64,000 nt of DNA, taken from Gammaproteobacteria bacterium. GTDB lineage: Bacteria > Pseudomonadota > Gammaproteobacteria > Eutrophobiales > Eutrophobiaceae. The translations under genes were made by a program, and so were the position numbers. Under the pieces are notes generated by a model. That model searched no databases. It was not told the DNA's origin and saw nothing but the letters and a program-made list of their open reading frames with translations. Below are positions 14,356 to 30,709 of this stretch, one piece after another (positions within the stretch are counted from its first letter, which is position 1; each line of letters begins with the position of its first letter). The DNA lies in NCBI GenBank assembly GCA_965238225.1, contig OZ250183.1, forward strand, positions 1,632,001 through 1,696,000, read 5' to 3'.

Positions 14356-15111
14356 ATGAAAAATACCACCGAAAATATTGATTTTTCTGAAAAATCTAAA
14401 TTTGATGCGCTCGCTTCAAAGTGGTGGAATGCTGATGGTGAATTACAAACCCTGCATGACATAAATCCAACGCGCCTTGCTTACATAGAAAACCATATTG
14501 ACTTAACAGACAAGAAAGTCTTGGATGTTGCCTGTGGCGGAGGCTTGCTGTCAGAAGCTTTGGCATTAAAAGGTAGTTTAGTGACAGGTATTGACATCAG
14601 TGAACCGCTTGTAAAAGTTGCAAATGATCATGCCAGACAAGCAGATCTAAACATTGCCTATCACTGTAAAACAATTGAAGATTTTTCTTCCGATCACGAA
14701 AACATTTTCGATGTTGTTACCTGTATGGAATTACTTGAACATGTCCCTTGCCCAAAATCTATCATTAACGCGTGCATGCGTGTCATTAAACCAAGCGGAT
14801 TACTTTTTTTATCCACAATTAATAGAAATTTAAAGGCTTATCTTCAAACTAAAATTACAGCTGAATATTTATTGAGATTACTGCCTGTGGGAACGCATGA
14901 ATATTCAAAATACATTCGTCCGTCTGAGCTTGCTTTGTTGTGCAGAATGTCTAAATTTACAGTCATTAATATATCAGGAATCTCATATCTCCCTTTCATA
15001 AGACAGTGCCACTTAAAAAATTCACCAGATGTAAATTATATCTTATGTGCTCAAGCTTCATATGACCAATCCGGCAACATAAATTGCGCGCGGGCAAAAG
15101 ACCAAACATGA
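14356..15111 (+). CDS. ubiG: Ubiquinone biosynthesis O-methyltransferase
   Basis: KFDALASKWW...LHDINPTRL, LDVACGGGLLSE, CMELLEHVP, STINRN, GTHEY. Confidence 0.95.
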   Translation: MKNTTENIDFSEKSKFDALASKWWNADGELQTLHDINPTRLAYIENHIDLTDKKVLDVACGGGLLSEALALKGSLVTGIDISEPLVKVANDHARQADLNIAYHCKTIEDFSSDHENIFDVVTCMELLEHVPCPKSIINACMRVIKPSGLLFLSTINRNLKAYLQTKITAEYLLRLLPVGTHEYSKYIRPSELALLCRMSKFTVINISGISYLPFIRQCHLKNSPDVNYILCAQASYDQSGNINCARAKDQT

Positions 15112-15776
15112 TTACAAGTGTCTTTTTTGATCTTGACGGTACCCTTGCAGATACCGCGCTAGATTTGACGAATGCCTTAAACCAGGTGCTTCATGAACAA
15201 GGAAAACCTAAGCTATCTCTAGAGTTTATTAAACCCGCAGTGGCTCTTGGAAGTAATGCCATAGTAAAACTGGCGTTCTCAATCGAAGAGGATGATCCTG
15301 AATTTGACAAGCTCAAAGAACGTTTTCTTAAAGCCTATCAACAAAGGCTACATCAAGACACATATATTTTTTCAGGAATGTACCAAGTACTTGATTACCT
15401 CGAAGGGAACAATATGACATGGGGCATAGTGACCAATAAACCAGAATGGTTAACCAAGCCTGTCATAAAACAATTGCAACTTGCCCAAAGAGCCGCTTGT
15501 ATTATAAGCGGCGATACTACTCGATATCAAAAACCACATCCTGGATCGATACTGCATGCCTGTGATGTTACACAAAGCGACCCTGAAACATCGCTTTATA
15601 TTGGAGATGCCCTAAGAGATATTGAGGCAGGTCGTGCTGCCGGAATGAGAACACTGGTAGCTTGCTATGGCTATATAGCCAAAAATGAAAATCTGCAAAC
15701 ATGGAATGCTGATGGATACATTGCAAAGCCAGAAGAAATTATTGACTGGCTCAAAATAGAAAACAGACATGCCTAA
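15108..15776 (+). CDS. gph: HAD-family phosphoglycolate/MurNAc-6P phosphatase
   Basis: FDLDGTLADT, TNKP, KPHP, YIGDALRDIEAG. ATG at 15108 overlaps the ubiG stop (ATGA). Usual ubiG-gph synteny. Confidence 0.85.
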   Translation: MITSVFFDLDGTLADTALDLTNALNQVLHEQGKPKLSLEFIKPAVALGSNAIVKLAFSIEEDDPEFDKLKERFLKAYQQRLHQDTYIFSGMYQVLDYLEGNNMTWGIVTNKPEWLTKPVIKQLQLAQRAACIISGDTTRYQKPHPGSILHACDVTQSDPETSLYIGDALRDIEAGRAAGMRTLVACYGYIAKNENLQTWNADGYIAKPEEIIDWLKIENRHA

Positions 15777-16003
15777 TGAAATAAGGGGCTGTCCCAGAAA
15801 CCAGTCCATTTCCTCTTTATCTCATTGTTTTAACAGGTTAAAAATTTGATATTAATGTATGTTTGTGTAGTTTTTTCTTATTAAAACGCCCTCACATTCC
15901 TTAAAAATAGCAGGAAATACGCTTTGGGAATACCATTAAATCTTCTTATATGTCATTTTGCCTAGTTCCAGAAATTCTCTATGTCGTTAAACAGGGCTAA
16001 ATA

Positions 16004-16031
16004 ATAAAGAGATCTGCATAGATCCCTTTAT
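16004..16031 (-). terminator. Hairpin terminator after RTX copy A
   Basis: ATAAAGAGATCT-gcat-AGATCCCTTTAT (one mismatch), AT-rich tail, ~75 bp past the stop. Confidence 0.65.
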
Positions 16032-16105
16032 TGTTATTGTCTTAACTTAAACCTTTTATTTCACTTAACTCTTTATCTAAGCTATATCTGGTGTAATTTA
16101 AGATA

Positions 16106-19100
16106 TTAGGCAGTTTGCCATGTTTCAGTCAATACTGTTTGCAGGTTATCAGCAACATCTTGCGTTATGACATTACCTGCACCAAGTGGTACATCATAAG
16201 CTGCCATGGCATTGACTAATTTGTAGACATCATCTTGTAGTAACACTGATGAATCAGTTGTGATGCTGTCCAGCTTGTAGTCATTCTCTCCTCAGTTGGA
16301 AGAACCATAAAAAGGTTGGTACAGTTTTCGTTTCGTACCAACCGCTCACTGTCGCTTGATCATTGGTTCCAGCGATGGTGATTAGTAAGTCTGCATTATC
16401 ACCACGACTAAACCACAAGTCTTCTACTGATACATTGTCAAATTGTAATATATCATTACTCGCTGAGTAGTCCGTATCATAATTATAAATGGTTGTATTA
16501 CCGTCACCTAAAGAAAACAGATAAGTATCGTTACCGTCATCTCCAGTCAGATAATCCTGTCCTGCACCACCACTTAAGGTATCGTCACCAGCACCTCCCC
16601 ACAAGTAATCGTTACCGTTACCTCCGTACAGGGTATCGTTACCTGCATCACCACTTAAAGTATCGTCACCGATTAGCCTCCGCTATAAGGTAATCGTCAC
16701 CGATACCGCCATACAGAGTCATCGATGCCGTCATCTCCGTATCAAGGTATCGTCACCGGTACCGCCGTTCAAGGTATCGTTACCGTCACCGCCGTCTAAG
16801 ATATCATTATCGTTACCGCCGTATAGTGTATCTATGCCGTTTTGTCCGTACAGGGTATCGTTACCGTTACCTCACGAACTTAAGAGTATCCGTCACCAGA
16901 GCCACCGCCTAGTACATCATCACCGTTTTGTCCGTACAGCTTATCGTCACCGTCACCGCCATTTAAGGTATCGTTATCGTTACCGCCGTATAGTGTATCT
17001 GTGCCGTCACCGCCATTTAAGTTATCGTTGCCGTTACCGCCATATAAGTAATCACGACCGTTGCCGCCGTCTAAGGTATCGCTACCGTTAAATCCGTATA
17101 GTGTATCTGTGCCGTCACCGCCATTTAAGTTATCGTTGCCGTTACCGCCATTTAAGTAATCGTCACCGTCACCGCCGTACAGGGTATCGTTATTGTTACC
17201 GCCGTATAGGGTATCGTAACCTGTGCCACCACTTAGTACATCATCGCCGTTTTGTCCATACAGCTTATCGTTATCGTTATCGCCGTTTAAGGTATCGTTA
17301 TCGTTACCACCGTATAGGGTATCTGTGCCACTACCGCCACTTAAGGTATCGTTGCCAGTCCAGCCGCCTAAGATATCGTTACCCGCACCGCCTTCAAGCA
17401 CATCATCGCCGTTTTGTCCGTACAGGGTATCGTTACCGTCATCACCGTACAGGGTGTCGTTATGGTCACCGCCGTATAGGGTATCATCGCCGTTTTGTCC
17501 GTACAGGGTATCGTAACCTGTACCACCACTTAGTACATCATCACCGTTTTGTCCATATAAGTAATCGGTATCGGCACCTCCGTACAAATAATCGTCACCG
17601 TTACCGCCGTCTAAGGTATCGTGATGGTCACCGCCGTATAGGGTATCTGTACCGTCCTGTCCATACAGGGTATCGTAACCTGCATCACCACTTAGTACAT
17701 CATCACCGTTTTGTCCGTACAGGGTATCGTCACCGTTATCACCGTTTAAGGTATCGTTATCGTTACCACCGTCTAAGATATCGTTATGGTCACCGCCGTA
17801 TAGGGTATCATCGCCGTTTTGTCCGTACAGGGTATCGTAACCTGTACCACCACTTAGTACATCATCACCGTTTTGTCCATATAAGTAATCGGTATCGGCA
17901 CCTCCGTACAAATAATCGTCACCGTCACCGCCGTCTAAGGTATCGTGATGGTCACCGCCGTATAGGGTATCTGTGCCGTCCTGTCCATACAGGGTATCAT
18001 CACCTGTACCACCGTTACCACCGTCTAAGGTATCGTTAGTTACCGCCGTATAGGGTATCTGTGCCGTCCTGTCCATACAGGGATATCATTACCATCATCT
18101 CCAGACAAGGTATCGTGACCGTCATGTCCAGACAAGGTATCGTCACCTGTACCTCCAGACAAGATATCGTTACCATTGTTTCCATTCAAGATGTCGTTAC
18201 CAGCACCTCCAGACAAGTAATCATGACCATAACTGCCTTCAAGCACATCATCGCCGTTTTGTCCATACAGCTTATCATGACCGTCAGCACCGTATACGGG
18301 GTGGTATAAGGGATCATCATCGTAGTGACCGCCACTACCGTACAGGATATCGTTACCATCACCCCCATACAAGATATCGCTACCGCTATAGCCTCTCAAT
18401 ATATCGTTATTACTAGAACCATTGATGATGTCATCTCCATGGCCGCTTGTTGCCAATACGTTGGCATCTATATATGCCTTTGTCCATACAGTACCATCAG
18501 CAAACTCAGTTTGGTCTATTTGGAACCTTTGGAAAAGGTAGGAATTTTCATAGGGAAAGTAATTTTGAATCGTTATAGTTTTTGTCGTGTTATTATCATC
18601 ACTTACTTGTAATAGAAGATGATCATATGCGCGAAATATTTGAACATCCGTGGCGGCAATACCTTCTCCAAATTTCAAGATATCTGTGCTACTGCCTAGG
18701 ACACCGTCAGAGCCTACATCGGCATTATAAATAGTTGTATTACCGTCACCTCGAAAAAATAAATAAGTATCGTCACCGTGGTTTCCTTGCATGTAGTTTG
18801 TACCTTTGCCGCCGCTAAAGATATCGTTACCGCGACCTCCATACAAGGTATCGTTACCATCACCGCCATTCAAGACATCGTTGCCATTACCGCCGTATAG
18901 GGTATCGTTACCAGTACCCCCATTCAAGGTATCGTCACCGGTATCTCCAGACAAGATATCGTTACCGTCACCGCCGTACAGGGTATCGTTATGGTCATTT
19001 CCAACCAAGATATCGTTACCGCCACCGCCGTACAGGGTATCGTTACCCCCACGACCTTCTAATAGATCATTACCATCACCACCATTGATAGTGTTATCGT

Positions 19101-21456
19101 TCTCGTCGCCTATAAGCAAGGCGGCATCTATCTGTGTCGATGTCCATACAGTACCATCAGCAAACTCAACTTGGTCTAATCGGTAATCATCCCTGAAGTG
19201 ATCGTAAATCGTTATAGTTTCTGTTGTGTTATCAGCACCACTTACTTGTAATAGAAGATCATTATCTACGCGAGTTGTTTGAACATCTGTGGTAGCAATG
19301 CCTTGTCCAAGTTGCAAGGTATCTGTGCTATTGCTTGTATCAAGGTTATGAATGCTTGTATCACCGTCACCTAGAGAAAATAGATAAGTATCGTCACCCT
19401 TATCTCCAACTAAGACATCTGTACCAGAACCGCCGCTAAAGATATCGTTACCGCGACCTCCATACAAGGTATCGTCACCGTCACCTCCGCTTAAGGTATC
19501 GTTGCCGTCTTGTCCAGACAGGACATCATTACCGTTATCTCCAGACAAGGTATCCGTACCGGAACCGCCGCTTAAGAAATCGTCACCGGCACCTCCATAC
19601 AAGGTATCGTCACCGTCAGTTCCATTCAAGGTATCGTTACCAGCAAGACCTTCCAGTAGATCATTACCATTGCTACCATTGAGAATATCATCGTTCTCAG
19701 AACCTCTTAACGAGTTTGTTGGCAATGTCCATACAGCACCATCAGCAAACTCAATTTGGTCTAATTGGTTATCATCATTTAGGAAGTGATCTATAATCGT
19801 TATAGTTTCTGTCGTGTTATCAGAGCTACTTACTTGTAATAGAAGATTATTACCTACGCGAGTTGCTTGAATGTCTGTGGTAGCAATACCTTGTCCAAGT
19901 TGCAAGGTATCTGTGCTTACGCCTGTATCGTAATTATGAATGGTTGTATCACCGTCACCTCGAGAAAATAGATAAATATCGTTATCGTTACCGCCATACA
20001 AGGTATCCGTACCAGAGCCACCGCTTAGTACATCATCGCCGTTTTGTCCGTACAGGGTATCGTCACCCGCACCGCCGTTTAAGTAATCGTCACCGTTACC
20101 TCCATTTAAGGTATCGTTATCGTTACCGCCGTATAGCTTATCGTTGCCAGCATAACCTTCCAGTAGATCATTACCACTACCACCATTGAGAGTGTCATCG
20201 TTCTCAGAACCTCCTAACGAGGTTGTTGGCAATGTCCATACAGTACCATCAGCAAACTCAACTTGGTCTAATAGGTAAGAATTACCTAGGAAGTGATCTT
20301 GAATCCTTATAGTTTCTGTTGTGTTATCAGAGCCATTTACTTGCAATAGAAGATTATTATCTATGCGAGTTACTGAACATCTGTGGTAGCAATACCTTGT
20401 CCAAATTGCAAGGTATCTGTGCTGTTGTCTGTATCATAATTATAAATGGTTGTATCACCGTCACCTTTGGAAAACAGATAAGTATCGTTACCGCTAACTC
20501 CAATTAAGATATCCGTACCTGCACCGCCGCTTAATGTATCGTCACCAGCACCTCCAACCAGGGTATCGTTACCGCTACCTCCATTTAGGGTATCGTACCA
20601 GTACCACCACTTAGTAATATCGTCACCGCACCTCCATACAGGGTATCGTTACCGTCACCTCCGTACAGAGTATCGTTACCAGCACCACCATTATAGAGGC
20701 ATCGTTACCAAGATTCACCGCCATATAGGGTATCATGTACCGTTTTGCACCTACAGGGTATCGTTACCTGTGCCGCCGCTTAAGTACATCATCGCCGTTT
20801 TGTCCAACCAAGGTATCGTCACCGTCACCACCGTATAGGGCATCGTTATGGTCACCGCCGTATAGGGTATCTGTACCGTTTTGTCCGTACAGGGTATCGT
20901 AACCTGTACCACCACTTAGTACATCATCGCCGTTTTGTCCATAATAGGGTATCGTCACTGTTATCGCCGTTATAAAAGGTATCGTTACCGTCACCACCGT
21001 CTAAGATATCGTTATCGTAAACCGCCGTATAGTGTATCTGTACCGTTTTGTCCGTACAGGGTATCGTAACCTGTACCACCACTTAGTACATCTTGTCGCC
21101 GTTTTGTCCATATAAGGTAATCGGTATCGGCACCTCCGTACAAATAATCGTCACCGTCACCGCCGTCTAAGGTATCGTTATCGTACACCGCCGTATAGGG
21201 TATCATCGCCGTTTTGTCCATACAGGGTATCGTCACCGTTATCGCCGTTTAAGAAATCGTCACCGGCACCTCCATTCAAGGTATCGTTACCGGCACCCCC
21301 TTATAGAACATCATCACCGTTTTGTCCATACAAGGTAATCGTTGCCGGCATTTCCATACAGGGTATCGTTACCAAAGCACCTGGTGAATTCAGGGTATCG
21401 TCGCCATCATTTCCTTCTAATCGATCATCCCCACTATCACCATTAACATTAGCCAT
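16106..21456 (-). pseudogene. RTX / haemolysin-type Ca2+-binding repeat protein, copy A (multiple frameshifts)
   Basis: ATG at 21456 ([15 protein letters not shown]) in the same context as copy B, and the same C-terminus ([12 protein letters not shown] at 16106). GGxGxDxLx nonapeptides are spread over ORFs 18040-20346, 16880-18076 and 16281-16604. Many indels at ~20350-21400 and ~16280-16880. Confidence 0.85.
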
Positions 21457-21860
21457 AATAATATTCCTGTTATTTATACGTTTTATAAAAGGTTGGTTAT
21501 TTGTAAGTTTAATCTTTTTTAAATCTTCTTAACGTTACGGTACAACAATAGTGCTATACAGCGTTCAATCATTAGCCGATATCTTGTTTGCATTTTTGTT
21601 GTCAAAAAGGTATTTAAAGATAAATCCTGTCAATGTTTTGCGTATTTATCTGTGTTTAAGGCTATATCCTTTAATGTACAACTTTTGCTATCACTAAATT
21701 GTGATACCCAAATAGGGTACCCTAAAAAAACGTTATACGAAAGTGGCAAATACATTAAATGTTGATTTAACTTTAGATACATAACATGCCTTATATAGGC
21801 ATTGCACCACTAATATTGTGGGGGGGTATGACCACAAGGTTGGTGAAAAAGTTCCACACC
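21451..21860 (-). repeat. ~410-bp duplicated 5' leader/promoter of RTX copy A
   Basis: Near-identical to 28087-28492, including the RBS context ACAGGAATATTATTATG. Confidence 0.92.
21689..21706. promoter_or_regulatory. Palindromic operator candidate TATCAC-N6-GTGATA (second copy at 28325-28342)
   Basis: Perfect 6-bp inverted repeat ~235-250 bp upstream of both RTX start codons. Confidence 0.35.
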
Positions 21861-21913
21861 GAAATGTAGAATTAGAGGTTAAATAAGATAATATTAAAGG
21901 GATCTAGATAGGA

Positions 21914-22168
21914 TAAAGACAGGACTAAATGTAGAATTAGAGGTTAATAAATAATATAAAGGGATCTGTAGATCCCTTTATTGTTATTGTCTTAAACTTA
22001 AACCTTTTATTTCACTTAAATCTGCTGTGATTAAGCTATTAGGCAGTTTGCCATGTTTCAGTCAATACTGTTTCCAAGCTATCAGCAACATCTTGTGCTA
22101 TGACATTACCTGCACCAAGTGGTACATCATAAGCTGCCATGGCATTGACTAATTTGTAGACATCATCT
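21914..22168. repeat. Duplicated RTX 3' end and terminator block
   Basis: Near-identical to 28814-29070 and similar to ~15990-16235. Confidence 0.9.
21956..21981 (-). terminator. Hairpin terminator after RTX copy B
   Basis: ATAAAGGGATC-tgta-GATCCCTTTAT, perfect stem with AT-rich tails. Confidence 0.75.
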
Positions 22169-25100
22169 TGTAGTAACTCTGATGAATCAGTTGTGATGCT
22201 GTCCAGCTTGTAGTCATTAATCTCCTCTTGTCTGGGGAAGAACCATAAAAAGGTTGGTACAGTTTTCGTTTCATACCAGCCAGCCACCTGTACTTGATCA
22301 TTGGTTCCAGCGACGGTGATTAGTAAGTCTTTATCACTACGACTAAACCACAAGTCTTCTACTGATACATTGTCAAATTGTAATATATCATTACTCGTTG
22401 AGTAGTCCGTATCATAATTATTAATGCCTACATTATAATCCCCTCGGGAGAATAAGTAAGTATCACTGCCGTTACCTCCGCGCAGGTAATCCTGTCCTGT
22501 ACCACCACTTAAGATATCATTACCGTCCTCTCCAAACAAGGCATCGTCACCATTGCTTCCATGCAAGATGTCGTTACCAGCACCTCCGCGCAAATAATCG
22601 TCACCATTATCGCCATATAAGTAATCATTACCGTTGTCGCCGCTTAAGTGATCGTTACCGTTAAATCCGTATAGGGTATCTGTGCCGTTACCGCCATTTA
22701 AGTTATCGTTACCGTTAACTCCGTATAGGGTATCGTTACCGTCACCGCCATTTAAGTAATCGTTACCGTTACCGCCATTTAAGTTATCGTTACCGTCACC
22801 GCCGTACAGAGTATCGTTATTGTTTTGTCCATACAGGGTATCATTGCCGTTTTGTCCATACAGGGTATCGTAGCCGTCACCGCCGTATAGGGTATCGTTA
22901 TTGTTTTGTCCATACAGAGTATCATTGCCGTTTTGTCCAACCAAGGTATCGTTACCGGCACCGCCTTCAAGCACATCATCGCCGTTTTGTCCGTACAGCT
23001 TATCGTTGCCGTTACCGCCATTTAAGATATCGTTGCCGTTACCTCCATACAGTTTATCGTTACCACCAAGACCTTCCAATCGATCATCACCACTACCACC
23101 ATTGAGAATATTATCTGTATCGTCGCCTATCAATAATCTAGCACCATCAGCAAACTCAATTTGGTCTAATCGGTAATCATCACTTAGGAAGTGATTATAA
23201 ATCGTTATAGTTTCTGTTGTGTTATTAGTGCTACTTACTTGCAATAGAAGATGATTATCTGCGCGAGTTGTTTGAACATCTGTGGTAGCAATACCTTGTC
23301 CAAGTTGCAAGGTATCTGTGCTTACGCCTGTATCGTAATTATAAATGCTTGTATCACCGTCACCTAGAGAAAATAGATAAGTATCGTTACCGCTACCTCC
23401 AGTCAGGTAATCCTGTCCTGTACCACCACTTAAAATATCGTCACCAGCACCTCCCCACAAGAGGTCGTCACCACCGAGACCTTCTAACCGATCATTACCA
23501 TCGCCGCCAATGATGGTGTTATTATTCTCATTGCCTACAAATAATAAGGCAGCATCTATCTGTGTTGTTGTCCATACAGTGCCATCAGCAAACTCAATTC
23601 GGTCTAATTGGTGAAAATCATTCCAGAAGTGATCGTAAATCGTTATAGTTTCTGTTGTGTTGTTAGTACCACTTACTTGTAATAGAAGATCATTATCTAC
23701 GCGAGTTGTTTGAACATCTGTGGTAGCAATACCTTGTCCAAGTTGCAAGGTATCTGTGCTTACACTTGTATCGTAATTATAAATGGTTGTATTACCGTCA
23801 CCTAAAGAAAACAGATAGGTATCGTTACCCTTGCCTCCAACTAAGATATCATTACCGTTACCGCCGTTCAAGTAATCGTTGCCGTTACCGCCGCTTAAGT
23901 TATCGTTACCGTTACCGCCGTACAGGGTATCTGTGCCGTTTTGTCCATACAAGGTATCGTCACCACCAAGACCTTCTAATCGATCATTGCCATTACCACC
24001 ATTGAGAGTGTTATTGTTCTCATCGCCTACAAATAATAAGGCAGCGTCTATCTGTGTTGTTGTCCATACAGTGCCATCAGCAAACTCAATTCGGTCTAAT
24101 TGGTGAAAATCATTCCAGAAGTGATCGTAAATCGTTATAGTTTCTATCGTGTTATTAGGGCTGTTTACTTGTAATAGAAGATTATTGCCTACGCGAGTTG
24201 TTTGAACATCTGTGGTAGCAATACCTACTCCAAGTTGCAAGGTATCCGTGCTGTTGCTTGTATCAAAGTTATAAATGGTTGTATTACCGTCACCTAAAGA
24301 AAACAGATAAGTATCATTACCGCTACCTCCAATTAAGATATCGTTACCGTCACCGCCATTCAAGTAATCGTTACCGGCATTTCCAGACAAAGTATCGTTA
24401 CCGTCACCGCCATTCAAGTAATCGTTACCGGCATTTCCAGACAAAGTATCGTTACCGTCACCGCCGTACAGGGTATCTGTGCCGTTTTGTCCATACAAGG
24501 TATCGTCACCACCAAGACCTTCTAATCGATCATTACCATTACCACCATTGAGAGTGTTATTGTTCTCATCGCCTACAAATAATAAGGCAGCGTCTATCTG
24601 TGTTGTTGTCCATACAGTGCCATCAGCAAACTCAACTTGGTCTAATTGGTTATCATCATTTAGGAAGTGATTATAAATCGTTATAGTTTCTGTTGTGTTA
24701 TTAGTGCTACTTACTTGTAATAGAAGATTATTATCTACGCGAGTTGCCCGAACATCTGTGGTAGCAATACCTACTCCAAGTTGCAAGGTATCCGTGCTGT
24801 TGCTTGTATCAAGGTTATAAATGGTTGTATTACCGTCACCTAAAGAAAACAGATAAGTATCATTACCGCTACCACCAACCAAGGTATCGGCACCTATACC
24901 GCCACTTAGGGTATCGTTACCACTGCCGCCAATTAAGGAGTCGTTACCACCGAGACCTTCTAATCGATCATTGCCATTGCCACCATTGAGAGTGTTATCG
25001 TTCTCATCGCCTACAAATAATCTAGCACCATCAGCAAACTTAATTTGGTCTAATCGGTTATCATCACTTAGGAAGTGATTATAAATCGTTATAGTTTCTG

Positions 25101-28092
25101 TTGTGTTATTAGGGCTGTTTACTTGTAATAGAAGATTATTATCTGTGCGAGTTACTTGAATATCTGTGGTAACAATGCCTTGTCCAAGTTGCAAGGTATC
25201 TGTGCTTACGCCTGTATCGTAATTATAAATGCTTGTATCACCGTCACCTAGAGAAAATAGATAAGTATCGTTACCAGCACCTCCCCACAGGTAATCCTGT
25301 CCTGCACCACCACTCAAGACATCGTCACCGATACCTCCGTACAAGTAATCGTTACCGTTACCTCCATTTAAGGAATCATTGCCAGCATAGCCTTCCAGTA
25401 GATCATTACCACTACCACCATTGAGAGTGTCATCGTTCTCAGTACCTCTTAACGAGTTTGTTGGCAATGTCCATACAGCACCATCAGCAAACTCAACTTG
25501 GTCTAATCGGTAATCATCACTTAGGAAGTGATTATAAATCGTTATAGTTTCTGTTGTGTTATTAGGGCTGTTTACTTGTAATAGAAGATTATTATCTGTG
25601 CGAGCCATTTGAACATCCGTGGTGACAATGCCTGTTCCAAATTTCAAGGTATCTGTGCTTACGCCTGTATCGAGATTATAAATGGTTGTATCACCGTCAC
25701 CTTTGGAAAACAGATAAGTATCGTTACCGTTATTTCCAATCAGGAAATCTCCTGTACCTGTACCGCCGCTTAAGACATCGTCACCGTCACCGCCATTTAA
25801 GTAATCGTTACCGTTACCGCCGTATAGGGTATCGTTATTGTTACCGCCGTATAGGGTATCTGTGCCGTTTTGTCCGTACAGGGTATCATCACCGTTTTGT
25901 CCATACAGCTTATCGTTACCGTTACCGCCACTTAAGGTATCGTTACCGTTACCACCGTATAGGGTATCGTTATTGTTACCGCCGTATAGGGTATCGTTAT
26001 TGTTACCGCCGTATAGGGTATCGTTATTGTTACCGCCGTATAGGGTATCTGTGCCGTTTTGTCCATACAGGGTATCATTGCCGTCATTACCGTACAGGGT
26101 GTCGTTATCGTTACCACCGTATAGGGTATCTGTGCCACTACCGCCACTTAAGGTATCGTTGCCAGTCCAGCCGCCTAAGATATCGTTACCCGCACCGCCT
26201 TCAAGCACATCATCGCCGTTTTGTCCGTACAGCTTATCGTTGCCGTTACCTCCATACAGCTTATCGTTGCCGTTATTACCATTGAGAACGTTATCCGTAT
26301 CATCGCCTATCAACAATCCAGCACCATCAGCAAACTCAATTTTGTCTAATTGGTAAGTATTGTTTAGGAAGTGATTTTGAATCGTTATAGTTTCTGTTGT
26401 GTTATCAGCACCACTTACTTGTAGTAAAAGATTATTATCTGTGCGAGTTATTTGAACATCTGTAGTAGCAATACCTTGTCCAAGTTGCAAAGTATCCGTG
26501 CTGTTGCTTGTATCAAGGTTATGAATGGTTGTATTGCCATCACCCAAAGAAAACAGATAAGTATCATTACCGTTGCCTCCTCCTAGGTAATCCTGTCCTG
26601 CACCACCACTTAAGGTATCGTCACCTGCACCTCCCCACAAGACATCGTCATCCGCACCTCCATTCAAGGTATCGTTACCATTACTGCCGTATAGTGTATC
26701 TGTGCCATCACCACCGTATAGTGTATCTATGCCATCACCACCGTATAGTGTATCGTTGCCGTTACCTCCGTACAGGATATCGTTACCACCGAGACCTTCT
26801 AATCGATCATCACCACTACCACCAGTGAGAGTGTTATCTGTATCGTCTCCTATCAATAATCTAGCACCATCAGCAAACTTAATTTGGTCTAATCGGTTAT
26901 CATCACTTAGGAAGTGATCTAGAATCGTTATAGTCTCTGTCGTGTTATCAGAGCCACTTACTTGTAATAGAAGATCATTATCTACACGAGTTACTTGAAT
27001 ACCTGTGGTAACAATGCCTTGTCCAAGTTGCAAGGTATCTGTGCTGTTGCCTGTACTATAATTATAAATGCTTGTATCACCGTCACCTTGGGAAAACAGA
27101 TAAGTATCGTTACCAGCACCTCCCCACAGGTAATCCTGTCCTGCACCACCACTCAAGACATCGTCACCGATACCTCCATACAAGTAATCGTTATCGTTAC
27201 CTCCATACAAGGAGTCATTGCCCGCACCTCCATTTAAGATATCTGCGCCTGTACCGCCACTTAAGGTATCGTTACCGGAACCTCCATTCAAGTTATCGCT
27301 ACCGGTATTTCCATTTAAGATATCTGCGCCTGTACCGCCACCTAAGGTATCGTTACCGTCATTTCCATTCAAGGTATCGTTGCCGTTACCTCCGCTCAAG
27401 GTATCGTTGCCGTCACCGCCATTCAAGTAATCGTTACCGTCATTCCCATTTAAGGTATCGTTACCAGCAAGACCTTCTAATCGATCATTACCACTACCAC
27501 CATTGAGAGTGTTATTGTTCTCATCGCCTACAAATAATAAGGCAGCGTCTATCTGTGTTGCTGTCCATACAGTACCGTCAGCAAACTCAACTTGGTCTAA
27601 TTGGTAATCATCCCTTAGGAAGTACTTTTGAATCGTTATAGTTTCTGTTGTGTTATTAGGGCTGTTTACTTTTAATAGAAGATCATTGTTTACACGAGTT
27701 ACTTGAATATCTGTAGTAGCAATGCCTTGTCCAAGTTTCAAGGTACTTGTGCTTACACTTTGATCGTAACTATAAATGCCTGTATTGCCGTCACCTAAAG
27801 AAAACAGATAAGTATCGTTACCGCCACCGCCAGCCAAGGTATCGGCACCTATACCGCCACTTAGGGTATCGTTACCGTCATCTCCATATAGGAAATCGTT
27901 ACCGGCACCCCCGCTTAAGAAATCGTCACCGGCACCTCCATACAAAGTGTCGTTACCGGCACCCCCGTATAGAAAATCATCACCGTTTTGTCCATACAAG
28001 TAATCGTTGCCACCGAGGCCTTCTAATCGATCATTGCTACTATTGCCGCCAATGATGGTGTTATTGTTCTCGTCGCCTATATAAGTAGCCAT
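22039..28092 (-). CDS. RTX / haemolysin-type Ca2+-binding repeat protein, copy B (intact, 2017 aa), probable type I secreted adhesin or surface protein
   Basis: Blocks of GGxGNDxLx nonapeptides alternate with ten DTYLFSxGD modules, nine of them ending EFADG/KFADG (HCBP-related domain). C-terminal secretion-signal-like tail (DLWFSR...LVNAMAAY...LTETWQTA). No N-terminal signal peptide. Confidence 0.95.
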
Positions 28093-28492
28093 AATAATAT
28101 TCCTGTTATTTATACGTTTTATAAAAGGTTGGTTATTTGTAAGTGTAATCTTTTTTAAATCTTCTTAACGTTACGGTACAACAATAGTGCTATACAGCGT
28201 TCAATCATTAGCCGATATCTTGTTTGCATTTTTGTTGTCAAAAAGGTATTTAAAGATAAATCCTGTCAATGTTTTGCGTATTTATCTGTGTTTAAGGCTA
28301 TATCCTTTAATGTACAACTTTTGCTATCACTAAATTGTGATACCCAAAGAAGATACCCTAAAAAAACGTTATACGAAAGTGGCAAATACATTAAATGTTG
28401 ATTTAGCTTTAGATACATAACATGCCTTATACAGGCATTACACTCCCTAACATTGGGGGTATGGTCAAAGATTGGTGAAAAAGTTCCACACC
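28087..28492 (-). repeat. Duplicated 5' leader/promoter of RTX copy B
   Basis: Near-identical to 21451-21860. Confidence 0.92.
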
Positions 28493-28855
28493 AGTTTGAT
28501 TTAGATTATGTTAAATCTAATTTATAAGGCGAAAGCTATATTTTATCGGTACTGTGTGAGGGTATTATGTTAAGTATTTTTGACCACAGACGGTCTGGTT
28601 TCGCAGCGCAGGGGGGGGCGAGAACGACTGTGACCAAGTTTACGGATGACCTTTAGGTGTATTTAAGTCTGTAAAATAGGAAACATATATGAAAAATCTC
28701 ATTGAATAAAGACGGTGTTGATTTTTAGTTAAAGTTTAAGATAAACCCTTATATTCACAAGGTTTACTATTCCACGATACAATAGATAGGATTTAAATAG
28801 ATAGGATTTAAATTAAAGACAGGACTAAATGTAGAATTAGAGGTTAATAAATAAT

Positions 28856-28883
28856 ATAAAGGGATCTATGTAGATCCCTTTAT
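28856..28883 (-). terminator. Hairpin terminator after RTX remnant C
   Basis: ATAAAGGGATCTA-tg-TAGATCCCTTTAT. Confidence 0.7.
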
Positions 28884-28940
28884 TGTTATTGTCTTAAACT
28901 TAAACCTTTTATTTCACTTAAATCTGCTGTGATTAAGCTA

Positions 28941-29283
28941 TTAGGCAGTTTGCCATGTTTCAGTCAATACTGTTTGCAAGCTATCAGCAACATCTTGTGC
29001 TATGACATTACCTGCACCAAGTGGTACATCATAAGCTGCCATGGCATTGACTAATTTGTAGACATCATCTCTTCATCAAATTGTAATATATCATTGACTC
29101 GCCGAGTTCGTATCGTAATTATTAATGCTTACTCTATAATCTCTCCGGGAAAACAAATAAGTATCACTGCCGTTACCTCCTTACCAGGTAATCCTGTCCT
29201 GCACCACCGCTAAGATGTCATTACCAGCACCTCCATACAAATCATCGCCACCGCGACCTCCCAGTTAAGATATCGTCGCCATT
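28941..29283 (-). pseudogene. RTX copy C remnant (C-terminal fragment with internal deletion)
   Basis: Stop and last ~43 codons match copy B (28941-29070). The sequence then jumps to the DILQFD / SDTYLFSR region and a few degraded nonapeptides. No 5' end. Confidence 0.85.
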
Positions 29284-29366
29284 CTAAATCTACTCTTTAC
29301 CATCAATTGTCCTCGACAATACATTTCGGGTATTATCGGGGCAGCCCCTAAAATAAACTCAATATC

Positions 29367-29819
29367 CTATAAAATAAACCTCAATCTTACCCTAAAACGT
29401 CTACATACAGTCTTAGGGATATTATCAGGGGTAAGTATAACTGGTATCTTGCGCTTGCCCTGCCCAAACATTAAAACAATCAAATGTGTATGCACGAATG
29501 ATTCTGGCAATAAAACAATAGGAACCATCTTGCTTTCTTTTTCATTGTCGATTGCATTGATGAGATACCACTCATTTTTATTATTCAGTAATAGCTCAGC
29601 AGAATTATTTTTTGGCAGATAAATTATTTTGTAATGCCAGTAAACAAGACTAAATAATACGATTAAACACATTGCCTGCAACAGGAGAAGCGGTATATTT
29701 GAAAAATAAATACAAACTAATGCACCAGAATGACTCAAAAAAACCACGGTTATCAACCATTTTGAAGGCACTAGTGGAAATCTTATAGGCAGTATAAAAT
29801 TTGAATCACCTGATGTCAT
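29367..29819 (-). CDS. YgfX (CptA)-like inner-membrane protein
   Basis: 150 aa. Two N-terminal TM spans (PSKWL...LSH) and C-terminal LTPDNI...RRFRVRLR resemble YgfX. Near sdhE/ygfZ. Confidence 0.6.
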   Translation of the reverse strand: MTSGDSNFILPIRFPLVPSKWLITVVFLSHSGALVCIYFSNIPLLLLQAMCLIVLFSLVYWHYKIIYLPKNNSAELLLNNKNEWYLINAIDNEKESKMVPIVLLPESFVHTHLIVLMFGQGKRKIPVILTPDNIPKTVCRRFRVRLRFIL

Positions 29820-30018
29820 TTGCCCTCCTTTAGAGAATTTAAATTTGATAAATTGCTGCGTTGCACATCCATCTTAAAAGTTTTTTGTAGTAAAAATATC
29901 TCAAGATTCGAATAGATTCTGGTACAATTTGTGGTTCGCTTGTGTCACCGCTTATTTTTAATTTAATTTTTGAAATACATATCAGCACAAACGTATACAG
30001 TATAAAAAATAAAAAAAC

Positions 30019-30240
30019 ATGGGTAAAAAAAATATCTCAGCAGAAGAAACTGAGAAAAAGAACGAATTGACGAATGAATCGACAAAGAATGTTGACAGTG
30101 ACGTTAACGGTGTTCATAAGAATTATACAATAAATCAGACAATATCTAAAAAACAAGCGAAAGAAATTGGTGGGCCGAAAGGCCTAGAACCAACGCGTTA
30201 TGGTGATTGGGAAAAACGTGGCCGCTGTATAGATTTTTAA
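30019..30240 (+). CDS. DUF1674 / SDHAF4 (Sdh8)-like succinate dehydrogenase assembly factor
   Basis: Signature C-terminus EIGGPKGLEPTRYGDWEKRGRCIDF. Confidence 0.92.
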   Translation: MGKKNISAEETEKKNELTNESTKNVDSDVNGVHKNYTINQTISKKQAKEIGGPKGLEPTRYGDWEKRGRCIDF

Positions 30241-30319
30241 ATATATGTTTTAAGTGCATAGTTTCAATGCACAGATTTCTGAAATTTTATTAAAAAAAGC
30301 AAGATGAGGTAACCACATT

Positions 30320-30709
30320 ATGGCAATGGATAATCGCCCGCTATCGCCACATTTACAAATCTATAAACCACAATTAACCTCAGTGTTATCTATTACACAC
30401 CGTGGAACGGGCATATTCTTGACAATAGGTGCATTTTTTCTGACCTTTTGGTTATTAGCACTTGCCAATGAGCCAGCATTCTTTACAAGACTACAAAGCC
30501 ACCTTGCGAGTTGGTATGGTCAGTGCTTGGTCTATGCCTTTGCGTTCTCTTTATATTTTCACTTATGCAACGGCATACGCCATTTGTTCTGGGATGTCGG
30601 TCTTGGACTTGATATTAATGTTTCCTACAAGACAGGCTACGCTGTAGTTGCAGCCTCGGTTATTTTTACACTCATAACGTTTTGTTTGGCTGCAGGAAAT
30701 GCGGCATGA
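30320..30709 (+). CDS. sdhC: Succinate dehydrogenase cytochrome b556 subunit
   Basis: RPLSPHLQIY, SITHRGTG, HLCNGIRHLFWD. Confidence 0.95.
   Translation: MAMDNRPLSPHLQIYKPQLTSVLSITHRGTGIFLTIGAFFLTFWLLALANEPAFFTRLQSHLASWYGQCLVYAFAFSLYFHLCNGIRHLFWDVGLGLDINVSYKTGYAVVAASVIFTLITFCLAAGNAA

Follow-up and report, generated by a model that had tools for sequence, protein, structure and literature searches.

Both ends of a block of RTX genes in the genome of an uncultured marine gammaproteobacterium carry the remains of an insertion sequence (IS) of the IS1016 type, a subgroup of the IS1595 family. We have analyzed this block inside a window of 64,000 nucleotides (positions 1,632,001 to 1,696,000 of contig OZ250183.1, assembly GCA_965238225.1), where it runs from 15785 to 29348 and separates two convergent genes, gph and ygfX. 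On balance, we take it for a fossil transposon of the IS1016 type (IS1595 family) that brought the RTX genes to this place, and we infer a joint movement of the ends and the cargo. The decisive support is the homology of both ends to complete IS copies found in relatives, and not the 11-mers that mark the ends. The features of the region are the following, in window coordinates.

15084..15776, plus strand: gph-like gene (left flank) coding for a HAD-family phosphatase, with its stop codon ending at 15776 (Pfam HAD_2, E 1.6e-36)
15777..15784, no strand: left putative 8-bp target-site duplication, TGAAATAA, abutting the gph stop and equal to the right copy at 7/8 positions
15785..15990, plus strand: left IS relic, IS positions 1-193 (blastn against five complete copies, E 1e-25 to 8e-15)
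15890..15988, minus strand: decayed 3' fragment of the transposase gene, interrupted by a frameshift and two in-frame stops
15998..21947, minus strand: RTX unit 1, with a hairpin (16004-16031) and a broken gene of ~5.3 kb (about 16106-21456)
21948..28849, minus strand: RTX unit 2, with a terminator (21956-21981), an intact gene (22039-28092, 2017 amino acids) and an upstream region (28093-28868, 776 bp)
28850..29283, minus strand: RTX unit 3, with a terminator (28856-28883) and the 3' end of an RTX gene that has stops and an internal deletion, cut at the right IS relic
29284..29348, plus strand: right IS relic, IS positions ~652-719, with the start of the transposase gene (7 codons), the 5' untranslated stretch and the terminal repeat
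29349..29356, no strand: right putative target-site duplication, TAAAATAA, abutting the right 11-mer
29367..29819, minus strand: ygfX/CptA-like membrane protein gene (right flank), convergent with gph and with sdhCDA next to it (Pfam PF07254, 32.1 bits against a cut-off of 27.3)

Remains of an IS1016-type element at both ends of the block

Complete elements with the same ends exist in the bacterial family to which this genome belongs. The 14-mer GGGGCTGTCCCAGA, the core of the left terminal repeat, was searched in 101 genomes of the family and is present in 5 of them, the window's own included; the reversed pattern, used as a control, gave 2 genomes with one match each. In one relative (G072) the motif forms an inverted pair 719 bp apart, and in another (G089) three contig ends carry it, as is usual for multi-copy repeats. 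The 719-bp element of G072 codes for an IS1595-family transposase (PF12762, NF033547), which a frameshift divides in this copy into 143 and 73 amino acids (aa). A DNA search of 126 family genomes with this element found relatives in 10, again counting the window's own; among them is G004, a complete genome from the genus of our organism, with four IS copies of 718 bp. The full copies of the family measure 714-719 bp and their transposase, which matches PF12762 and NF033547, 218-221 aa; it is intact in four of the five copies compared and shares 70-74% identity with genes on plasmids whose annotation reads IS1595-family or ISEc75-like transposase.

The flanks of these complete copies are also informative. 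The G089 copy has a perfect 8/8 target duplication (TATTTTAT), the flanks of the G107 copy match at ~6/8 and those of the G072 copy do not match. Two G004 copies on opposite strands have swapped flanks, AAAATTTA and CCTTAATTT, matching at 8 and 9 bp. These copies sit at about 1237 kb and 1326 kb of G004:C1, and the exchange points to an inversion of ~89 kb via recombination between the two inverted IS copies. By size, transposase length, 14-bp terminal repeat and AT-rich duplications of 8-9 bp, the full copies fit the IS1016 subgroup.

The left relic of the block is 70-75% identical to the IS copies (70% over 209 columns in the case of the G072 copy, E 2e-18). Its terminal repeat core, GGGGCTGTCCCAGA, is intact at 15785-15798 and identical to that of the G072 and G137 copies; base 15 (T15), retained in all five full copies, is absent from it. 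The transposase fragment matches the C-terminal open reading frame (ORF) of the G072 transposase, with 64% identity over 33 aa (tblastn against the whole genome, E 4e-9). At the other side, blastn aligns 29310-29348 with IS 680-719 at 80% identity and the multiple alignment extends to ~29284, where RTX-repeat coding sequence directly abuts the relic. The complemented start codon of the transposase lies at 29301-29303, and the right 14-bp core has one substitution and one indel. Both relics share a direct orientation, the same that they have relative to each other within one IS. IS positions 194 to ~651 are absent, and 13.3 kb of RTX DNA are found in their place. The identity and the orientation of the IS ends and of the transposase fragments can be read directly from these alignments.

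The terminal repeats of the block are of the kind described for the IS1016 subgroup (~14 bp, beginning with GGGGCTG). The length is not: the block has 13,564 bp against the ~0.7 kb of the subgroup and the 714-719 bp of the copies in relatives, and is therefore not itself an IS, but a segment bounded by IS remains. The two relics are in direct orientation but sum to less than one IS, and the two former copies that would once have bracketed the cargo are an inference. A first-pass annotation, made from the letters of the window, had described the block as a transposase-less cassette with IS1595-family, IS1016-type ends. The ends proved to be of this type, with 206 bp at the left and 65 bp at the right homologous to the complete elements. 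As for the cassette, a working transposase is indeed absent, but it is not a clean one: the window keeps the decayed 3' fragment, a 33-aa stretch with its two stops and frameshift, and the first 7 codons, and these are all its transposase remains.

The left 11-mer, GGGGCTGTCCC, occupies 15785-15795 and the right one, GGGGCAGCCCC, 29338-29348; both, like the flanking 8-mers and the spacing to the stops of gph and ygfX, were located where the first-pass annotation had put them. Allowing up to one mismatch, the degenerate 11-mer occurs in the window only at the two block ends, with 4 strand-matches against 1.24 +/- 1.35 expected, and at least 4 are reached in 4 of 100 shuffles, which is weak when taken alone. 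In the whole genome, GGGGCNGNCCC or its complement has only 6 sites, the 14-mer GGGGCTGTCCCAGA has 3 occurrences, all within two elements, and the 7-mer GGGGCTG is at background frequency (113 + 41 occurrences). Because the 11-mer is near shuffle level in the window and GGGGCTG is common, the short motifs alone are insufficient for the claim. On the three points on which the first-pass annotation had staked its proposal, namely the adjacency of gph and ygfX in relatives, the existence of such an IS in the lineage and the 11-mers relative to background, the outcome was in its favour. When 185,579 species genomes were screened for the 20-mer of the left end, 2 matches turned up, both in one Dehalococcoidales metagenome-assembled genome; they lie within coding sequence, have no IS homology and were discarded as chance.

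It could be argued from the marginal 11-mer count and the common 7-mer that the ends are GC-rich near-palindromes of an ordinary, terminator-like kind, as may follow two convergent genes, or else that the RTX block was misplaced during assembly, as the RTX units are a multi-copy repeat family and difficult to assemble. One public sequencing run (X1, as Logan contigs) has the region, and its comparison covered the left junction (14800-16300); the contigs shown do not bridge 15996-16004. We consider chance or artefact very improbable all the same. The homology runs 206 bp into the IS, transposase coding sequence included, with E values down to 1e-25, and at the right end the alignment extends across the start codon of the transposase. 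Besides, one X1 contig (14800-15824) joins gph to the left IS end, and the genome is a single contig of 1.72 Mb.

The same run contains two variants of the left relic within 15795-15941, one at depth 11 with a 1-bp deletion at 15845 and the other at depth 5 with five base differences, which suggests strain-level diversity. X1 may be the sample of origin.

The gph-ygfX junction in relatives and the target site

We have examined the junction in ten congeners, seven of which have a ygfX match (the three remaining genomes are 63-89% complete). All seven have the order ubiG-gph-convergent ygfX-sdhCD, with 36-160 bp between the alignment ends of gph and ygfX, and in none of them was there a match to the RTX probes at the locus or to the 11-mer in the gph-ygfX spacer. 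Five metagenome contigs with ygfX were also found, all at 74% identity or less; gph adjoins ygfX in four, and the fifth ends before gph. Given this adjacency in 7 congeners and 4 contigs, the 13.6-kb block is lineage-specific among the relatives seen, which is a direct observation. The first-pass annotation had predicted that a tight convergent pair would be left without the RTX genes, and this is the arrangement in every relative where both genes were found. A single flanking duplication and a site that is empty in relatives, as expected of a compound or pseudo-compound transposon, are both present here, the second at the level of gene adjacency. The product of the gph-like gene itself matches the NCBIfam models for phosphoglycolate phosphatase and MupP only below their cut-offs.

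Our data on the 8-mers flanking the block agree with the 8-bp target duplication that had been proposed. They are AT-rich and coincide at 7/8 positions, within the 7-9 bp (usually 8) of the duplications described for the IS1016 subgroup, and they fit the AT-rich duplications of 8-9 bp of the IS copies in relatives. Among 8-mers of this genome, a match of at least 7/8 was found in 0.76% of random AT-rich pairs (186/24,431, an empirical figure) and in 0.056% of unrestricted pairs. At the other side of the duplication, the ygfX-like stop is only 18 bp from the right end of the block. The 15 bases past this end, TAAAATAAACTCAAT, have a second copy, TAAAATAAACCTCAAT, at a distance of 21 bp, where it constitutes the 3' end of ygfX (window 29349-29391), and the ygfX ORF is here ~4 codons shorter at the stop than in the relative in which the frame was read (L003). 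This near-tandem duplication may be a trace of an earlier event at the site.

Another trace of the same kind of IS is found far from the window. In a 70-bp element at genome positions 262495-262564, IS 1-27 is fused to 681-719. Its 15-bp inverted repeat is perfect, and its two parts are similar to the corresponding ends of the block, left to left and right to right. The element, with TAGTTTAT and TAGTTTTT as its flanks, occupies the spacer that separates a rhodanese-like gene from a convergent tatC gene. It is a miniature deletion derivative of the same IS lineage, which was therefore once active in this lineage of bacteria, and this counts in favour of a delivery by such an IS. A simple empty site for it was not found in the congeners, where the rhodanese-tatC junction has an extra gene or remains. 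The only other IS1595-type sequence of the genome is a truncated, unrelated relic of 146 aa (1252763-1253200), 33% identical to the cognate type and without matching ends, located 2 kb beyond the hlyD/hlyB region described below.

The RTX cargo and the ways in which it may have arrived

The cargo comprises three tandem RTX units on the minus strand, one with an intact gene, one with a frameshifted copy and one with a 3' truncated copy, and each opens with the terminator-like hairpin listed above. In unit 1 the longest minus-strand frames have 797 and 401 codons, none exceeds 92 codons in 20434-21528, and the C-terminal region is split across two frames. The upstream region of unit 2 is 92-99% identical to those of other RTX loci. 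Unit 3 has 202 nt that are 100% identical to unit 2, and tblastn recovers it in two pieces (28944-29072 and 29097-29258). All this is directly observed, and it bears out the earlier description of a cargo made of RTX units only, each with its own upstream region and terminator; as genes, however, two of the three are broken. Far upstream in the RTX units (~28790-28850 and equivalents), 2-3 tandem copies of a 15-bp motif similar to ATAGATAGGATTTAA precede the next terminator and may be a regulatory site. No Rfam family was found in 15000-30500 at gathering thresholds.

The 2017-aa protein of unit 2 has the Pfam domain HemolysinCabind (PF00353) in 48 stretches and HCBP_related in 9. Pfam gave no other convincing domain, and specifically no pore-forming, protease, lipase or adhesin domain. 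For this reason we label the protein neither adhesin nor toxin, and the term adhesin-like that had been applied to the cargo has to be abandoned.

Four other loci have units of the same family, without exception on the same strand; they lie at genome positions of about 796-815, 1046-1050, 1174-1183 and 1243-1247 kb, and their C-termini are 48-99% identical to those of the window. A blastn search with the G072 and G004 elements gave no IS match beside any of the four, and nothing below E 1e-3 except the two known elements. The arrays at 796 and 1243 kb have 108 bp of left flank in common. Outside this genome the family is more distant: the C-terminus has no match in 8 of the 10 congeners, relatives are at most 58% identical there among 101 family genomes, and a member of another genus (G033) has its own expanded RTX set at 50-58% identity.

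Genes for hlyD and hlyB (genome 1247254-1250873) adjoin the unit at 1243-1247 kb, 0.4 Mb from the array of the window. The HlyB-type ABC transporter scores 1011 bits with TIGR01846 (cut-off 725) and the HlyD adaptor 351 with TIGR01843 (cut-off 209). This system is the probable export route of all the RTX copies. The genome, at 1.72 Mb, compares with listed sizes of 1.3-2.7 Mb for congeners, the two complete ones having 2.1 and 2.5 Mb; small size, broken RTX genes and IS relics together fit an ongoing genome reduction.

In the account that we favour, RTX units (terminator, gene and upstream region) would have had an IS copy at either side, the two in direct orientation, or only the outer ends of such copies. 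This unit would have inserted via the two outer terminal repeats, duplicating an AT-rich target of 8 bp. The IS parts would then have decayed by deletion and point mutation, leaving IS 1-193 at the left and ~652-719 at the right, and the RTX units would have duplicated in tandem, some of them breaking. What is seen today would be a fixed, immobile island, and its intact 2017-aa product would leave the cell through the HlyB/HlyD type I secretion system, the genes of which lie at another locus. We prefer a causal link between the IS and the RTX genes because an accidental landing of RTX DNA in one 0.7-kb IS is improbable and four other RTX loci are without IS remains.

The same structure might have been built in the opposite order. 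A lone IS1016-type element could have inserted first, with its 8-bp duplication, and an RTX copy coming from another locus of the same genome could later have replaced IS 194 to ~651 by illegitimate recombination, followed by tandem duplication; the association of IS and RTX genes would then be incidental. Such a history would explain why the two relics, in one orientation, do not overlap on the IS, and why the left edge of unit 1 is a unit boundary at the terminator hairpin, as in the other arrays. It would also be shorter than a history with two insertions of the IS and two deletions, and the RTX units of the four other loci, up to 99% identical and without an IS match, imply a spread independent of this IS. 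What it demands in exchange is that an ectopic copy hit one 0.7-kb IS in a 1.72-Mb genome, for which the chance is small, together with a deletion of 458 bp at the place of insertion, and it presupposes a mechanism of ectopic RTX copying. We regard it as the main rival, if an unlikely one.

The first-pass annotation had gone further in the direction of mobility, with a cassette mobilised in trans. In this version, the block would have been a mobile insertion cassette, already without transposase, when a cognate enzyme of the IS1016 type brought it here, and it may remain mobilisable. By its architecture the structure left after decay is a mobile insertion cassette as defined in PMC4337579: IS-type repeats, passenger genes, no working transposase and flanking direct repeats. 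The IS lineage did yield the 70-bp non-autonomous derivative in this genome, and an intact IS of the cognate type exists in a congener, with the four copies of G004. However, tblastn found no cognate transposase in the genome, where the only other IS1595-type relic is the truncated one mentioned above; the right 14-bp repeat has its substitution and indel and the left repeat has no base 15; and there is one copy only of the block. Moreover, the transposase fragments at both ends indicate descent from full IS copies rather than a purpose-built cassette, whose formation from one IS would need the same unlikely landing of RTX DNA inside it. We therefore hold an arrival as a cassette to be improbable, and mobilisation in trans stays unproven, with no enzyme, no second copy and a damaged right repeat; on the same three grounds, present mobility of the block is unlikely. 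Among the family genomes searched no bounded RTX copy was seen elsewhere. As a whole, the interpretation of the first-pass annotation finds partial support. Were the proposal true, this would be the first RTX array known to travel as an IS1595-family mobile insertion cassette, and such cassettes would be suggested as seeds of the RTX expansions in the lineage.

Several points weigh against the delivery by a transposon that we favour. Being complementary, the relics (1-193 and ~652-719) could be what is left of one resident IS that lost its middle to the RTX DNA. Unit 1 has its left edge within ~12 bp of the usual unit start before the hairpin, which would be a coincidence for the endpoint of a random deletion. 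The other RTX arrays have spread without a recognisable IS, and no second copy of the bounded block is present in the genome. The flanking duplication is imperfect (7/8), and the relatives, with ygfX 49-74% identical, are too diverged for a base-by-base alignment of the empty site. Sequences of an empty site or of a circle junction were sought in the X1 contigs at the left junction and none was found, with no joints and no loose end at 15785; this is a weak point, in contigs that drop rare variants. The target duplication does not separate the three histories, delivery by a transposon, prior residence of the IS and arrival as a cassette.

Meaning of the block and comparison with known systems

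The block provides a concrete and datable case in which a small and probably reductive marine gammaproteobacterial genome, of 1.72 Mb, gained a large array of genes for secreted proteins, bracketed by IS ends and placed in a conserved junction of housekeeping genes. It also illustrates the later fate of such an insertion, with the transposase lost, the ends eroded and gene copies broken. To the resistance genes seen as cargo with IS1016-type elements it adds RTX genes, without defining a new class of element or settling a long-standing question. No report of RTX genes as cargo of IS1016 or IS1595 elements was found among the papers listed by one full-text literature search and judged by titles and the starts of abstracts, ISfinder not being covered.

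The RTX genes themselves resemble known substrates of type I secretion. They code for calcium-binding nonapeptide repeats and HCBP_related domains, and genes for an ABC transporter (HlyB) and an adaptor (HlyD) are present in the genome. Unlike in the known RTX type I systems, these secretion genes are 0.4 Mb away from the array of the block.

There are precedents for the architecture. The paper of Siguier and colleagues of 2009 on the IS1595 family reportedly treats members that carry passenger genes, and a named mobile insertion cassette, MIC231, is said to occur in Bacillus cereus. In such cassettes, for instance the TnXax1-related ones of Xanthomonas, IS-type terminal repeats surround passenger genes with no transposase gene (PMC4337579). 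The block is like them in having passengers between IS-type repeats, no working transposase and a short flanking direct repeat. It differs from the cassettes described there in that it keeps transposase fragments at both ends, has one damaged repeat, is in single copy and has no cognate transposase in the cell, and its cargo is a large tandem gene array, partly pseudogenised. The IS1595-family compound transposon formed by ISEc69 with mcr-2 (PMC7835479) is reportedly another case of an element of this family that mobilises neighbouring genes.

The closest parallels come from ISApl4 of Actinobacillus pleuropneumoniae, a member of the IS1016 subgroup with 712 bp, a transposase of 217 aa, perfect 14-bp repeats (GGGGCTGTACTAGA) and AT-rich 8-bp direct repeats (PMC12561309). 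The IS copies of the relatives are very similar in length (714-719 against 712 bp) and in transposase (218-221 against 217 aa). The terminal repeat is identical at 12 of 14 positions (GGGGCTGTCCCAGA here and GGGGCTGTACTAGA in ISApl4), and AT-rich 8-bp direct repeats and a preference for intergenic sites are found in both cases. Tn7560, from the same source, is a pseudo-compound transposon in which a pair of directly oriented ISApl4 copies carries and moves cargo. IS-bounded cargo, transposase-free cassettes and pseudo-compound transposons of the IS1016 type are thus already described in these sources, and the kind of element, for which the first-pass annotation had no described example to offer, is not an undescribed one. 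The differences with Tn7560, as it is presented there, lie in the state of the IS copies, reduced here to fragments of 206 and 65 bp in a genome with no transposase left, in the cargo, 13.3 kb of RTX genes instead of resistance genes, and in the host, an uncultured marine gammaproteobacterium, the block of which is known from sequence alone. The likeness is in the directly oriented ends that bracket the cargo, and this precedent of a directly oriented IS1016-type pair that moves cargo is counted as support for the delivery of the RTX genes by a transposon of the same kind.

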